64,000 nucleotides of DNA, from IMG/VR virus record IMGVR_UViG_3300031419_000581. One strand, given 5' to 3'. A model generated the notes under the pieces. That model had not been told where the DNA came from and searched no databases. It worked only from the letters and a program-made list of their open reading frames with translations. The stretch comes from a virus (taxonomy: Duplodnaviria > Heunggongvirae > Uroviricota > Caudoviricetes). The position numbers and the translations under genes are program-made. Shown here piece after piece: positions 11,788 to 37,751 of this stretch. The first letter of the stretch is position 1. Each line of letters begins with the position of its first letter.

Positions 11788-11817
11788 TTGCAAAGAAAAA
11801 AAGAACTACGCTATAAT
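11788..11817 (+). promoter_or_regulatory. sigma70 promoter of clpP
   Basis: TTGCAA (11788-11793), 18-nt spacer, TATAAT (11812-11817). It lies inside the ORF track's N-terminal extension, which argues against the 11767 start. Confidence 0.6.
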
Positions 11818-11850
11818 AGCGCCATGTTGAACAATAAAAGGAAAGTAAAT

Positions 11851-12435
11851 ATGGCTGTTATTCCAATGGTAATTGAGCAAACTTCTCGCGGTGAACGTTC
11901 TTATGATATTTATTCCCGCCTGCTAAAAGAGCGTATTATCTTTCTGAATGGTCAGGTTGAAGACAATATGGCAAACGTGATTGTTGCACAAATGCTGTTC
12001 CTGGAAGCAGAAAATCCTGAAAAAGATATTTATCTGTATATCAACTCGCCAGGTGGTGTCATTACTGCTGGTATGGCTATTTTCGATACCATGAAATTCA
12101 TTAAGCCTGATGTCAGCACCATTTGTCAGGGTCAGGCATGTTCTATGGGTGCTTTCCTGCTGGGTGCAGGCACCAAAGGCAAGCGTTTTTGTCTGCCAAG
12201 TGCACGAGTTATGATCCATCAGCCTCTGGGTGGTTATCAGGGTCAGGCGACAGACATTGAAATTCATGCGCGTGAGATGCTGAAAGTTAAAGCACGAATG
12301 AATGAGCTTATGGCTGAACATACCGGTAAGCCGGTTGAAGAGATTGAACGTGATACTGAACGAGATCGTTTCATGTCAGCACAGGAAGCTATGGACTATG
12401 GTCTGATTGACGGTATTCTTGATAAGCGTAAATAA
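11851..12435 (+). CDS. clpP: ATP-dependent Clp protease proteolytic subunit ClpP
   Basis: [28 protein letters not shown]...[14 protein letters not shown]...[11 protein letters not shown]...[20 protein letters not shown]... is colinear and mostly identical to E. coli ClpP as I recall it, with the catalytic Ser (SMG), His and Asp contexts present. Start at 11851 (AAGGA SD) or 11824. No clpX follows. Confidence 0.95.
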
Positions 12436-12450
12436 TAAACGATAAGAAAG

Positions 12451-12478
12451 AAAAAAGAGAGCATTTGCTCTCTTTTTT
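12451..12478. terminator. bidirectional rho-independent terminator
   Basis: A6-GAGAGC-attt-GCTCTC-T6, between the convergent clpP and 12489..12959. Confidence 0.85.
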
Positions 12479-12488
12479 ATTATGTCTG

Positions 12489-12959
12489 TTATGAAGGTGC
12501 GTAACTGACCTGACGTTTTACCAATCCGCGATCAACAAATTCATCAAGCCACGGTTTAGCTAAATCAGGATAATTTCCATTACGTCCACCTGCCAGTTTC
12601 CAGTGTTCATAATTCAGCAATACTAAGTCATCAAGATCATTAATCTGAGTGCGGATCCCTTTTTTATCAACAGAGAACAGAATACCGTTTTCAGCTTCTT
12701 CCAGTATCATAGCACCATTTTTGTAAAAACCGTCAACGTGGAAATGACCTGAAAGAATATCATATTTACATGAAATACTGTGATCTATCAGTTCAAGAAT
12801 GACAGGGTGGAGCCTTCTTTGAGAAGGTTTATAGTCTTCAAGTCTGAACTCTTTAGGTTGAGTATGTTCTTCCTGTTCCTTGCGATGTTCTTCAATGACC
12901 ATCCCAAGATTATCTAACTGAGAACTGGCAGGTTCATTATAATTATTTTCGTGTTCCAT
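12489..12959 (-). CDS. hypothetical protein
   Basis: 156-aa ORF with AGAGG SD and an acidic N-terminus. No family recognised. Ends ...VSYAPS (no tail). Confidence 0.65.
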   Translation of the reverse strand: MEHENNYNEPASSQLDNLGMVIEEHRKEQEEHTQPKEFRLEDYKPSQRRLHPVILELIDHSISCKYDILSGHFHVDGFYKNGAMILEEAENGILFSVDKKGIRTQINDLDDLVLLNYEHWKLAGGRNGNYPDLAKPWLDEFVDRGLVKRQVSYAPS

Positions 12960-35177: not shown

Positions 35178-35273
35178 TTGAATAAAATACAGGCATTCAA
35201 AATATATTTAAATGATAAATATTGATTTGCCCGTTATAAAGATTATAGTAGAGTTTGTTTTCAGGAGAAAAAT

Positions 35274-35783
35274 ATGAAACTTATGACAAAAAAAGAAAAT
35301 ATTATTGAAGAACATAGTACTTTAGGTAAATCTTTTAAATTTAATGCTAAAATATTTAATGGCACAAATAAATTCCATATGGCTTTTTGTATTCTGCTCG
35401 GTATCATTGTTATACACTTTATGGGATATCTTGTTATAAAAGCAAATCCGATCCCACATAGTATATGGCGTTTTCCTATTGAATTATTTTTGGGTTATTT
35501 AATCGGTTTTTTTACGTATGCTTATGCAACAAGGAAAAATACAATTATGCTTCATCATAATATCATGACAATTTCTAATAATACAGGAACGACTGATATT
35601 AAAATAGAAGACATAGACAATATTGCTTATGATTCGCTTGCAGTATTAAGTGCAACAGGTGTACACTTCTTTTCCTATTATTTATATGCAGAAGTAAAAG
35701 GCAAAAAAATCAGACTACATAAAGGTTATATTACAAATGCTATGGCTGAATATATTATACAGAGAATTAATTTAGGAAAATAA
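35274..35783 (+). CDS. small membrane protein (two predicted TM helices)
   Basis: AGGAGA SD. Hydrophobic segments FHMAFCILLGIIVIHFMGYLVI and FPIELFLGYLIGFFTYAYA. No family recognised. Confidence 0.6.
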   Translation: MKLMTKKENIIEEHSTLGKSFKFNAKIFNGTNKFHMAFCILLGIIVIHFMGYLVIKANPIPHSIWRFPIELFLGYLIGFFTYAYATRKNTIMLHHNIMTISNNTGTTDIKIEDIDNIAYDSLAVLSATGVHFFSYYLYAEVKGKKIRLHKGYITNAMAEYIIQRINLGK

Positions 35784-35802
35784 AAAGACCCAGGTTAAAA
35801 AA

Positions 35803-36774
35803 ATGATAAAATTTATTGATTTATTTTGTGGTATGGGAGGCTTGAGGCTTTCCATACCTGTTAATAATACACAATGTGTATTCAGTAGTGACATTAATGT
35901 TCATGCTCAGAATATTTATGAATGTAATTTTGGAGAACGTCCATATGGTGATATCACCAAAATAAAGACAGAGGATATACCTTCTCATGATTTATTAATA
36001 GGTGGTTTCCCCTGTCAGGCTTTCAGTATCGCAGGAAAAAAACAAGGTTTTGAAGATACCAGAGGTACTTTGTTTTTCGAAATAGCAAAAATTATTGCAT
36101 ATCATAAACCTCGCGTTGTGTTACTTGAAAATGTAAAGAATTTGCTCAAGCATGATTCTGGTAAAACATTATCGGTTATTTTAGATACATTAACGGATTT
36201 AGGCTATCATGTATCCGTGAAATTAATGAATGCAACTGATTTTGGTATTCCACAAAATAGAGAAAGAGTGGCTATTGTTGCAAACAGAGAAGGTACTCCT
36301 TTTTCTTTTGAAGCAGTGAAAAAACAGGAAGCCTTTTCAATGAAAGGTTTTTTGTCTGATAAAGGTGAAGAATATTTAGGATCACAAGAATATACACTTT
36401 TAGATAAGACTGATATCAAACGAAGCCCTGCGGGTCTTATTTTTTCAGGTTATCGTAATAAGCCTGTCAGAAAAAATGGATTATCTCCCGGAGGATTAAA
36501 AGTCTCACGCACTCACAGGCAGTGTAATCGTATTTATTCTATAGAAGGTATTCACCCAACATTATCTGCTCAGGAATCCTCTGGACGTTATTTTGTTCAG
36601 GATGACTATGGTGTCAGAAAATTATCAATTGAAGATTGTATGAAACTTATGGGCTATCCAGAAGAATTTAAACTTTTCGGAAGTAAGTCTGCACAATATG
36701 AAAGAATTGGTAATTCTATCTGTGTTCCTATGTTCAAAAATATCGCAGAACAAATCATGTGCCAGTTTTTTTAA
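35803..36774 (+). CDS. DNA (cytosine-5)-methyltransferase
   Basis: Canonical C5-MTase motifs in order: I FIDLFCGMGG, IV GGFPCQAFSIAGK, VI LLENVKNL, VIII QNRERV, X GNSICVPM. 323 aa. Confidence 0.9.
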   Translation: MIKFIDLFCGMGGLRLSIPVNNTQCVFSSDINVHAQNIYECNFGERPYGDITKIKTEDIPSHDLLIGGFPCQAFSIAGKKQGFEDTRGTLFFEIAKIIAYHKPRVVLLENVKNLLKHDSGKTLSVILDTLTDLGYHVSVKLMNATDFGIPQNRERVAIVANREGTPFSFEAVKKQEAFSMKGFLSDKGEEYLGSQEYTLLDKTDIKRSPAGLIFSGYRNKPVRKNGLSPGGLKVSRTHRQCNRIYSIEGIHPTLSAQESSGRYFVQDDYGVRKLSIEDCMKLMGYPEEFKLFGSKSAQYERIGNSICVPMFKNIAEQIMCQFF

Positions 36775-36860
36775 AAAAACGTAAATTATTTTTGATTTAT
36801 TGAAAATTATATCGATATACTCCCTAAAATTAAAATAATAACAATAAGGGGTATATCGTA

Positions 36861-37751
36861 ATGAATTATGATAAAAGTAGTAATAAATTAGTCAGGAATT
36901 CGGCAATTGTTGCCGTTGTCGCAGTAGTGGGTCTGTTTTCAATTTTTGGATCTTATTATACTGTAGATTCTGGTGAGCGTGGACTTAAAATGCGTTATGG
37001 TAAAATTGTTGAAACCTCACAACCTGGTTTCCACTGGAAATTTCCATTCGTTGATACGGTAGAAACAATAAGTGTGAGAACGGATACTGTTCATTATCAG
37101 AATCTCTCAGCATATAGTCGTGATCAGCAGCCAGCAAAAATTATTGCTTCTATCACCTACCATGTGCCGGATTCAGAAGTTTCTAAATTATACAGTCAGT
37201 ATGGTTCAGTGCCTGCATTTGTAAATAGTGTTGTTAACCGTCAGGCTCCGACTCAGATTGAAAACGTATTTGGTCAGTTTAACGCAATTACGGCGGTTCA
37301 GGATCGTACCCGTCTGATTAAAGAACTGACTCAAAGTATCAGAGAATCTTTAAAAGATGATCCAATTCTGGTTGACTCAGTGCAGGTAGAAAATATTATT
37401 TTCTCTGACGCATATGAAAAATCAGTTGAAGCGCGTATGCAGGCAGAAGTTGAAGTTCAGACTCAAAAGCAGAATCTGGATAAAGAAGCTATTTCTGCTA
37501 AAATTGCTGTAACCCGTGCACAAGGTGTCGCAGACAGTAAACTTGCCGAAGCTCGTGCAGATGGTGAAGCAACACGTATTCGTGGTCAGGCAGAAGCAGA
37601 CGCGATTAAAGCACGTGCTGCCGCTCTTGCACAAAATGAAAATCTGGTTGAATTGACTAAGGCTGAAAAATGGGATGGTAAGTTGCCAACGACAATGATT
37701 CCTAATACTACTCTGCCGTTCATGAATATGAATGATTCTGAGAAGAAGTAA
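36861..37751 (+). CDS. SPFH/band-7 protein, prohibitin-like
   Basis: N-terminal TM anchor (AIVAVVAVVGLFSIFG). SPFH core YYTVDSGERGLKMRYGKI...GFHWKFPFVDTV. Ala/Glu-rich coiled coil (EARMQAEVEVQTQKQ...AEARADGEATRIRGQAEADAIKARA). Confidence 0.8.
   Translation: MNYDKSSNKLVRNSAIVAVVAVVGLFSIFGSYYTVDSGERGLKMRYGKIVETSQPGFHWKFPFVDTVETISVRTDTVHYQNLSAYSRDQQPAKIIASITYHVPDSEVSKLYSQYGSVPAFVNSVVNRQAPTQIENVFGQFNAITAVQDRTRLIKELTQSIRESLKDDPILVDSVQVENIIFSDAYEKSVEARMQAEVEVQTQKQNLDKEAISAKIAVTRAQGVADSKLAEARADGEATRIRGQAEADAIKARAAALAQNENLVELTKAEKWDGKLPTTMIPNTTLPFMNMNDSEKK

Follow-up and report, generated by a model that had tools for sequence, protein, structure and literature searches.

The stretch of DNA analysed here, called the window throughout, is the 64-kb virus record IMGVR_UViG_3300031419_000581 (~32% GC), in which the initial annotation had pointed out five genes for protein quality control, namely clpP, an FtsH-family protease gene, clpB, a gene for a prohibitin-like SPFH protein and, at the window end, a yccA-like gene. 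Pfam and NCBIfam matches confirm each of the five at the positions given below. A Shine-Dalgarno motif is found upstream of 39 of 60 starts against a background of 10%, an excess which indicates that the sequence is prokaryotic. The majority of the open reading frames (ORFs) match no Pfam family, Rfam at gathering thresholds gave no match in the window, and tRNA, rRNA and translation genes were found neither in its 64 kb nor, as regards tRNA and translation genes, in the related loci described below.

The clpP gene (11851-12435, plus strand; PF00574, E=3e-89) encodes an enterobacterial-type ClpP, which scores 357 bits where the TIGR00493 equivalog cutoff is 308.6. Its likeness to the tig-clpP-clpX-lon locus of Enterobacterales lies in the protein, which is 84-88% identical to ClpP of this order (Serratia, Enterobacter and E. 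coli among those compared), with a conserved catalytic triad (S97, H122 and D171), a ClpX/ClpA docking pocket for the IGF loop in which 12 of 15 residues are those of E. coli, two of the three changes being conservative, and N-terminal loops identical to those of E. coli ClpP at 17 of 20 residues. It differs from that locus by the absence of a propeptide, the first residue aligning with Ala1 of mature E. coli ClpP in agreement with the start first proposed, by a terminator of its own, by partly AT-shifted codons (GC at third positions 0.36 versus 0.65) and by the lack of adjacent tig, clpX and lon, L009 being an example of the canonical context. At the DNA level the gene is 77.6% identical to E. 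coli clpP, its GC is 43.6% and 79% of its leucine codons are CTG, as compared with ~10-15% in most neighbouring genes.

A promoter of its own and a bidirectional terminator had also been claimed for clpP. The terminator is indeed present directly 3' of the gene as an intrinsic one with a 12-pair stem (12451-12478) and T-runs on both strands, shared with the convergent gene h156, and terminator-like sites are enriched in the region (9 found against 0.9 expected). For the promoter, a sigma-70-like candidate exists at 11788-11817 on the plus strand (TTGCAA, 18 nt, TATAAT; 10 of 12 consensus positions), but promoter-like sites in the clpP region are not enriched, five being found against 6.8 expected in shuffled sequence, and the promoter is consequently plausible without statistical support. 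The ATG at 11851 is preceded by the Shine-Dalgarno motif AAGGAAAG.

The second protease is a divergent FtsH-family AAA+ zinc protease of 667 residues (22078-24081, minus strand) with AAA, AAA_lid_3 and Peptidase_M41 domains and a sub-threshold FtsH_ext match. The divergence described at first is well founded, as the protein stays below the equivalog cutoffs of TIGR01241 (545 against 600 bits) and PRK10733 (410 against 1008 bits) and is 38% identical to E. coli FtsH, with which its Walker, SRH (second region of homology) and HEXXH motifs align (7VHP). Two hydrophobic segments (residues ~5-27 and 166-202) flank a periplasmic stretch of ~140 residues, about twice the length found in E. coli FtsH, and all full-length relatives, at most 50% identical, are metagenomic or SRA proteins. 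In every lineage the gene adjoins, in the same orientation, a gene for a Suv3-like DExQ helicase (19608-21890, minus strand; PF22527, Helicase_C, SUV3_C), whose identity to the related copies is 78% in L002, 69% in L003, 58% in L014 and 56% in L012. Long antisense ORFs are present within clpP (11923-12321, minus strand) and within the FtsH-like gene (23282-23629, plus strand); these ought not to be annotated as genes, their seeming conservation in relatives being due only to that of the sense genes.

The clpB disaggregase gene (29586-32174, minus strand) encodes two AAA modules, an N-domain and a D2-small domain and passes the TIGR03346 equivalog cutoff (1322 against 1232 bits). Copies in related elements are 98%, 85%, 74% and 70% identical, an exact-protein look-up gave no match, and the best named matches are those of Betaproteobacteria (65-67%), with 60% identity to Salmonella ClpB. 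The SPFH/Band-7 protein (36861-37751, plus strand; PF01145 Band_7, E=1e-34) has one N-terminal transmembrane segment and is encoded by a single gene with no adjacent SPFH partner; its closest PLSDB matches are ~50% identical 'prohibitin family protein' genes of Pseudomonas megaplasmids. The last of the five, a multi-pass membrane protein of the BI-1/YccA family (63335-64000, plus strand; PF01027 Bax1-I, E=2e-45), shares 57-61% of its residues with Burkholderiales proteins, as against 38% with YccA of E. coli. Both of these membrane proteins are members of the superfamilies named at first, but not of the specific subgroups suggested by the comparison with E. coli, since the former scores 57 bits against an HflC cutoff of 134 and 42 bits against an HflK cutoff of 159, and the latter 128 bits against the YccA equivalog (PRK10447) cutoff of 353. 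The mosaic affinities of ClpP, ClpB, BI-1 and SPFH, together with the lack of tRNA, rRNA and translation genes, fit a mobile element.

Pattern-based scans brought up no close relative among GTDB species genomes, IMG/VR, PLSDB, INPHARED and complete E. coli genomes; GTDB and IMG/VR were each scanned twice, with the FtsH-like query and with a Suv3 alignment query, and neither yielded a relative. A 22-kb megablast query had no match among plasmids and phages, nor did the Suv3-FtsH region in a blastn search of 5,426 complete E. coli genomes, and no DNA match to the window at the megablast level was found in any collection searched. Relatives are known only as contigs from Logan, JGI and ENA assemblies and from one third-party assembly at NCBI labelled 'E. 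coli', and reach 388, 443 and 454 kb. Every ORF of these related loci was mapped to the window by BLAST.

A ClpB 70% identical to the window copy lies on contigs of the run SRR13871251, which in the supplement to a preprint on the pMEGA plasmids (Guitor et al., bioRxiv 2025; bioRxiv 10.1101/2025.09.30.679422) is E. coli G269_1R, the isolate that yielded pMEGA4. Since the contigs of this run carry that identical ClpB and the run is that of the pMEGA4 isolate, the link from the window to the pMEGA family is direct. ClpB, GH5, h189, Suv3 and FtsH are all present on the SRR13871251 contigs, and clade-1 contigs (L003, L004 and L008) add SPFH, Dcm and h169 in the local order of the window. A gene count along L004, a collinear contig from another E. 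coli assembly (GCA_024673755.1), gives SPFH 162, ClpB 170, Suv3 181 and FtsH 182, which are exactly the published numbers, Table S8 for pMEGA4 listing these four genes and ClpP 187 (bioRxiv 10.1101/2025.09.30.679422). The window clpB, Suv3-like, FtsH-like and SPFH genes thus correspond to pMEGA4_170, pMEGA4_181, pMEGA4_182 and pMEGA4_162 respectively. The BI-1 gene also has a clade-1 homologue, on the same 388-kb contig at ~36 kb from clpB. In pMEGA4 the same families occur in the same local order, with h169-Dcm-SPFH, ClpB and GH5-h189-Suv3-FtsH, and ClpP lies within a few genes.

The pMEGA plasmids are circular, 1.3-1.58 Mb in length and 26-29% in GC, with ~80% hypothetical genes and 100-208 tRNAs; rRNA, ribosomal proteins and core metabolism are absent, and a Dot/Icm-type type IV secretion system (T4SS) with DotL, DotM, DotN, IcmW and DotB is encoded along with more than 300 alpha-solenoid/ankyrin genes, which were called potential secreted effectors (bioRxiv 10.1101/2025.09.30.679422). 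The genome style is shared with the window, i.e. 26-32% GC, mostly orphan genes, ankyrin/alpha-solenoid arrays and tandem paralogues. Within clades the pMEGA plasmids have an average nucleotide identity of at least 95% (pMEGA1 and pMEGA4 in clade 1, pMEGA2 and pMEGA3 in clade 2; bioRxiv 10.1101/2025.09.30.679422). This level is not reached by the window, whose proteins are 63-76% identical to those of clade 1 (ClpB 70%, Suv3 69%, SPFH 76%, BI-1 63%) and whose Suv3 is 58% identical to that of L014. The L014 lineage is presumably clade 2. On these identities the window lineage appears to lie outside the two published clades. Its close relatives occur in two or three SRA runs only, and none of the runs tested is present in the accessible part of the preprint supplement.

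Taken together, the window is probably a stretch of backbone from a conjugative megaplasmid of Enterobacteriaceae, giant in size and very AT-rich, that belongs to the pMEGA family, although the window itself holds no plasmid replication, partition or Dot/Icm conjugation genes, its sole candidate being a HerA/DUF87 ATPase. Other replicons were considered. A huge phage was set aside in favour of a megaplasmid in the light of the preprint, the PHROGs matches being limited to nucleotide metabolism and a helicase, with no structural genes; among phages, only Salicola phage SCTP-2 has a Suv3-like gene (31% identity), along with a ClpA homologue ~8 kb off and nothing else in common, and a tblastn search of phages with ClpB brought up wrongly filed bacterial contigs and ClpB genes that are unrelated and at most 58% identical. 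An intracellular symbiont, for example a betaproteobacterial one of amoebae, was raised by the Burkholderiales affinity of ClpB and BI-1 and discarded on the isolate evidence. It also seems extremely unlikely that an uncultured intracellular bacterium with a reduced, rearranged chromosome has in the five genes its sole housekeeping copies. The low GC and the ankyrin-rich and orphan-rich content resemble an intracellular symbiont, and the ClpB and ClpP scores above equivalog thresholds would likewise suit such a chromosome, but the window is collinear with pMEGA4-type contigs of a pure E. coli isolate, the complete circular genomes of the family lack rRNA, ribosomal proteins and core metabolism, the FtsH-like protein is at 38% identity to, and below the cutoff for, canonical FtsH, the gene affinities are mosaic and the GTDB species genomes hold no relative.

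The neighbourhood of the quality-control genes is built of recurrent blocks. The first comprises a ribonucleotide reductase (RNR), the HerA-like ATPase, h135, an IscA-like protein, an ankyrin protein, a gap of ~600 nt and ClpP; the others are ClpP-h156-h205 with h156 convergent, FtsH-like-Suv3, GH5-h189 and h169-Dcm-SPFH, and ClpB is positioned between the last two groups. As these blocks recur in deeply diverged lineages, with Suv3 only 52-69% identical, the neighbourhood is old. The blocks are inverted relative to each other between lineages; for example, FtsH-Suv3-h189-GH5 (window 17735-24081) is inverted relative to the ClpP block when compared with L014 (10001-18978). In clade 1 the ClpP block lies on the FtsH side of this block and in the window on the GH5 side, so that the window differs from pMEGA4 in the side on which ClpP is found. 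More inserted genes of the tagged class described below are another difference. Such inversions match the 'extensive rearrangements' noted in the preprint (bioRxiv 10.1101/2025.09.30.679422).

Distant relatives (L012, L013, L017, L018 and L021) have the RNR/ClpP/FtsH-Suv3/GH5 backbone at 31-38% GC and come from Logan runs, from the JGI contigs Ga0308161_1000030 (443 kb) and Ga0157372_10000003 (454 kb) and from ENA OKEV01000048.1. Some of the JGI metagenomes are presumably from soil or rhizosphere. These contigs suggest that the megaplasmid family extends well past the two published gut-associated clades, and their hosts may possibly lie beyond Enterobacteriaceae. In four of them (L012, L017, L018 and L021), ClpP and the FtsH-like gene are ~2 kb apart with only h156, h205 and h154 between.

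The earlier view of clpP as an orphan gene is true locally, where no ClpX-like ORF was found among the window ORFs translated or scanned, Pfam having covered part of the ORFs, and where neither ClpX nor ClpA was found in the window or beside clpP in any related locus examined. It does not extend to the family, since pMEGA4 also encodes ClpX (1386), one ClpA-like (92) and one ClpS-like (1406) protein, as well as further copies of FtsH (57 and 1364) and SPFH (816 and 1025) (bioRxiv 10.1101/2025.09.30.679422). A partner unfoldase for ClpP must therefore be encoded elsewhere, as pMEGA4_1386 and pMEGA4_92 are, or be supplied by the host. Assembly with a host-type or plasmid ClpX/ClpA would be expected from the residues of the docking pocket, and this host-type docking surface, taken with the leucine codons, argues for work with host-type unfoldases. 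In all sampled lineages an enterobacterial-type ClpP is found in the same block, with CTG usage of 0.37-0.79, and each lineage's ClpP is as close to Enterobacterales ClpP as to that of the other lineages. A single ancient acquisition from an enterobacterial host, with evolution then speeding up on the plasmids, would fit this pattern, and recurrent replacement by host copies could also account for it.

Enterobacterial host chromosomes have their own clpPX, lon, ftsH, hflKC, yccA and clpB. Given these copies and a replicon of the pMEGA family, the window set is separate and accessory, and pMEGA collinearity gives the same answer to the question, left open by the initial annotation, of whether these are second or sole copies. 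At the level of gene content, synteny and the pMEGA4 description demonstrate that the five genes are plasmid-borne accessory proteostasis genes beside the host's own. A possible quality-control repertoire was already listed in the preprint (Guitor et al., bioRxiv 2025), consisting of ClpP, ClpX, ClpA-like, ClpS-like and ClpB proteins together with three of the FtsH and three of the SPFH type. The preprint also reports 'two Clp proteases' transcribed at a low level in a panda gut dataset (bioRxiv 10.1101/2025.09.30.679422); the set is thus largely explained as pMEGA proteostasis genes that were already noted in 2025.

In the explanation proposed here, ClpP would have come from an enterobacterial host by a capture that predates the split of the sampled lineages, its docking surface being kept almost host-identical, and would assemble with ClpX or ClpA provided from elsewhere on the plasmid or by the host. 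The FtsH-like protein, with or without SPFH and BI-1, may form a second inner-membrane quality-control activity of different specificity, and ClpB may supply extra disaggregation capacity. The benefit could lie in buffering the proteotoxic and membrane load that comes with expressing over 1,000 lysine-rich foreign proteins and a secretion apparatus of large size or, alternatively, in a wider stress tolerance of the host. Several points weigh against this explanation and the assignment on which it is built. The clpX, clpA and Dot/Icm genes of the window lineage are an extrapolation from pMEGA4, this lineage has been seen in two SRA runs only, and any benefit to plasmid or host is conjecture. 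In addition, the quality-control genes are clustered beyond random scatter, which leaves room for a functional link: four of the ~11 listed Clp/FtsH/SPFH genes of pMEGA4 fall within 26 of its 1,483 genes, where a rough estimate for random scatter expects 0.19. The other pMEGA4 copies are dispersed, and in the window both strands carry quality-control genes, which have terminators of their own and stand amid the unrelated RNR, Dcm, GH5 and Suv3 genes.

Two known systems offer a comparison. TLPQC-1 and tLST/LHR, found in Pseudomonas aeruginosa clone C and in Enterobacteriaceae, are compact, operon-like, high-GC islands of ~15-20 kb through which an extra FtsH and a Clp/Hsp100 disaggregase (ClpG/ClpK) are horizontally transferred along with small heat-shock proteins, DegP and thioredoxin, and they are thought to extend stress tolerance. 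The window shares with them the extra FtsH and disaggregase copies on a transferred element beside the host's own, but its ClpB is canonical rather than ClpG or ClpK (758 and 757 bits against 1900-bit cutoffs), small heat-shock proteins and DegP are lacking and the genes, found on either strand, are spread over ~52 kb. The preprint cites the studies of FtsH in clone C (bioRxiv 10.1101/2025.09.30.679422). With the E. coli FtsH-HflK/HflC-YccA complex the window has the same three superfamilies in common (M41 AAA+ protease, SPFH and BI-1), a likeness in gene content; the FtsH-like protein is 38% identical, the SPFH gene is single instead of an hflK-hflC pair and BI-1 is nearer to Burkholderiales.

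The initial annotation had also described the quality-control genes as interleaved with genes that share a C-terminal tag. This interleaving is real, as 21 of the 61 window genes end in R-[L/I/M] where 0.42 would be expected (P ~4e-30). The tag follows the pattern [K]-x-[K/S]-x-[N/S/K]-R-[I/L/M], and the last ten residues of the tagged proteins have a mean net charge of +2.6. Five arginine codons and six terminal codons are used and the downstream DNA is unrelated, so that selection acts on the tag at the protein level; an artefact at the DNA level is ruled out by the same observations. Tagged genes have a mean GC of 27.9% against 34.5% for untagged ones, are only 30-48% identical between the window and its nearest sister L002, and number eight in L014, seven in L003 and four in L002. 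The tag is common to clade-1 pMEGA contigs and L014 and is absent from the syntenic loci of the distant relatives from JGI metagenomes; all five distant relatives have 0 tagged genes in 22 kb, and in L012, L017, L018 and L021 none of the ~18 ORFs per locus is tagged. The low GC, the poor conservation and the tag-free syntenic loci indicate that the tagged genes are later, fast-evolving insertions into a backbone that holds the quality-control genes.

Between and around the five genes, the tagged members include 13050-14420 (minus strand, ...ISRL; 48% identical in L002 and absent in distant relatives), 14529-15062 (plus strand, ...KNRL; with an internal ATG start matching the 177-178 aa genes of relatives) and 16323-17660 (plus strand, ...LARL; 30% identical in L002). 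Two more lie on the plus strand between FtsH and clpB without a Pfam match (24257-25969, ...RSRI, and 25969-27075, ...VNRL), followed by 28009-28452 (minus strand, ...TKRI) and 28579-29541 (plus strand, ...LNRI). Four stand in a row on the plus strand at 32316-35177 (...VSRL, ...KSRI, ...STRL and ...KPRI), among which the tandem pair 34210-34692 and 34704-35177 is 33% identical; other examples are 1233-2279 (minus strand) and 57225-58364 (plus strand).

As to its function, the R-[I/L] tag is, by analogy with known signals, most likely a recognition signal for Dot/Icm type IVB secretion, and the tagged genes would form a separate, younger layer between the backbone genes whose tails are recognised by the plasmid Dot/Icm system. 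Short clusters of basic or hydrophobic residues at a protein's C-terminal end are established signals for type IV transport, in VirB/D4 as well as in Dot/Icm systems (PMC3297438), and the family has a complete Dot/Icm type IVB system including the coupling complex, which together make secretion clearly more likely, on this analogy, than the degron that had been put forward as its alternative. The preprint makes no mention of the C-terminal tag in its main text (bioRxiv 10.1101/2025.09.30.679422).

In the degron model, a K-x-x-R-[I/L] end would be read by the element's own Clp or FtsH so as to keep effectors low in the producer cell, and the quality-control set would exist for the tagged genes. 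The tag is found strictly at the C-terminus, is under protein-level selection and is basic-then-aliphatic, loosely like the MuA-type ClpX degron RRKKAI (PMC8138137); a family-borne ClpX, ClpA-like and ClpS-like repertoire would allow altered specificity, and tagged and quality-control genes are physically interleaved. Against these points, the tag has an invariant arginine at -2, where MuA has alanine and ssrA ends in LAA, and fits no known class; FtsH prefers non-polar tails, a degradation tag on 20-35% of a plasmid proteome would be very costly, the family has Dot/Icm with DotL, DotM, DotN and IcmW for which simple signals of the basic/hydrophobic type are established, and no result, whether from experiment or computation, connects the tag with proteolysis. 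Moreover, relatives keep the ClpP-FtsH backbone in syntenic 22-kb loci without tagged genes, and the set therefore predates the tagged genes at this locus and is independent of them there. The degron model is consequently very unlikely. What stands of the 'dedicated set' first proposed is a separate, element-borne set; a dedication to degrons does not, given the tag-free relatives that keep ClpP and FtsH.

A combination of both functions is quite unlikely as well: the same tail would export hundreds of proteins through the Dot/Icm coupling complex and act as a C-degron by which the plasmid's Clp machinery (ClpX or ClpA with the host-like ClpP) or FtsH would clear the donor cell of effectors that are not exported. 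If true, the effector factory on these plasmids, the largest known in enterobacteria, would have its cost-control arm in the quality-control backbone. The quality-control genes might, finally, chiefly serve secretion with no degron involved, ClpB, ClpP or FtsH unfolding, triaging or clearing stalled Dot/Icm substrates and membrane components. Type IV substrates need unfolding for transport, the family combines a large Dot/Icm apparatus with hundreds of putative substrates, one FtsH copy (57) lies inside the pMEGA4 T4SS region and the HerA/DUF87 ATPase, annotated as 'VirB4' (pMEGA4_191), is four genes from clpP. The module is, however, kept in tag-free relatives and the window has no T4SS genes apart from the HerA-like ATPase, and a service to secretion is therefore unlikely.

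What is new with respect to the preprint is the lineage, apparently outside the two published clades, and a family that looks broader than described. The ClpP/FtsH-Suv3/ClpB/SPFH neighbourhood is an ancient backbone and a useful marker set for such elements. The pMEGA plasmids occur in clinically relevant E. coli and Salmonella isolates and the tag is the more valuable follow-up, for if it were a Dot/Icm signal the whole effector repertoire would be readable from sequence.

The remaining features of the locus include a non-coding element upstream of clpP. Within a 620-nt gap (11232-11850), a core of ~200 nt (11440-11640), a candidate non-coding RNA or regulatory element, is nearly base-for-base invariant across the six lineages in which the gap was compared (window, L001, L002, L012, L014 and L018), the proteins of which are only 47-58% identical. 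The consensus fold of this core is better on the minus strand, a terminator-like hairpin lies on the minus strand at 11317-11298, and Rfam gave only a chance-level match to the gap; according to the preprint, the strongest RNA peaks on pMEGA are intergenic (bioRxiv 10.1101/2025.09.30.679422). On the other side of clpP, the conserved protein h156 (12489-12959, minus strand) is encoded convergently in every lineage examined, with 35-79% identity across lineages. It has no Pfam match, its single-sequence AlphaFold model has a pLDDT of 64 and Foldseek found nothing at E<0.3; a ClpS- or SspB-like adaptor role for it would be pure speculation.

Other backbone members are h205 (15189-15806, plus strand), which follows h156 in all lineages and has no Pfam match, and the small protein h154 (27084-27548, minus strand), whose gene is directly upstream of the FtsH-like one in relatives free of tags and whose homologues adjoining FtsH in L012, L017, L018 and L021 are 37-40% identical. 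A GH5 gene (17735-18910, plus strand; Pfam Cellulase in relatives) is 42-87% identical across lineages, and in relatives it adjoins h189 or is at most ~1.2 kb away. The genes h169 and Dcm, a C-5 cytosine DNA methylase (35274-36774, plus strand; PF00145, E=1.5e-87), always precede the SPFH gene. The soluble HerA/DUF87 ATPase (7029-8363, plus strand) and a divergent RNR large subunit of 971 residues (4003-6918, plus strand), with no small subunit nearby, adjoin each other as conserved backbone in all lineages.

Outside these blocks, an envelope-stress module (42257-45586, minus strand) consists of a BaeR-like regulator and a BaeS-like kinase, with BaeR and BaeS as best NCBIfam matches, both below cutoff, and downstream of them a gene for an LTXXQ (Spy/CpxP-family) periplasmic protein (PF07813, PF13801). 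This module, absent from the list in the initial annotation, gives the stress genes a periplasmic arm, and with it the region would be stress-related in a general way instead of being a single operon-like system. Three paralogous pairs of 26-33% identity are present (2409-3089/3221-3862, 32316-33680/38669-40114 and 34210-34692/34704-35177), one with signal peptides and untagged and two tagged, consistent with the tandem multi-copy families reported for pMEGA. TnpB insertions of the IS605 type occur in relatives, at 7953-9536 of L004 (GCA_024673755.1), where a DoxX gene adjoining clpB is interrupted, and at 2198-3334 of L027; the L004 element has no counterpart in the 5,426 complete E. coli genomes, which is uninformative on residence in E. 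coli. Among the untagged proteins, 15 of 40 end in lysine, often as KK, against 9.5% lysine overall (binomial P ~2e-6), examples being ClpP (..DKRK), the FtsH-like protein (..FNKK), ClpB (..FSKK) and SPFH (..SEKK); these ends may reflect an AT-rich codon bias before the stop, selection on the termination context or a second C-terminal feature.

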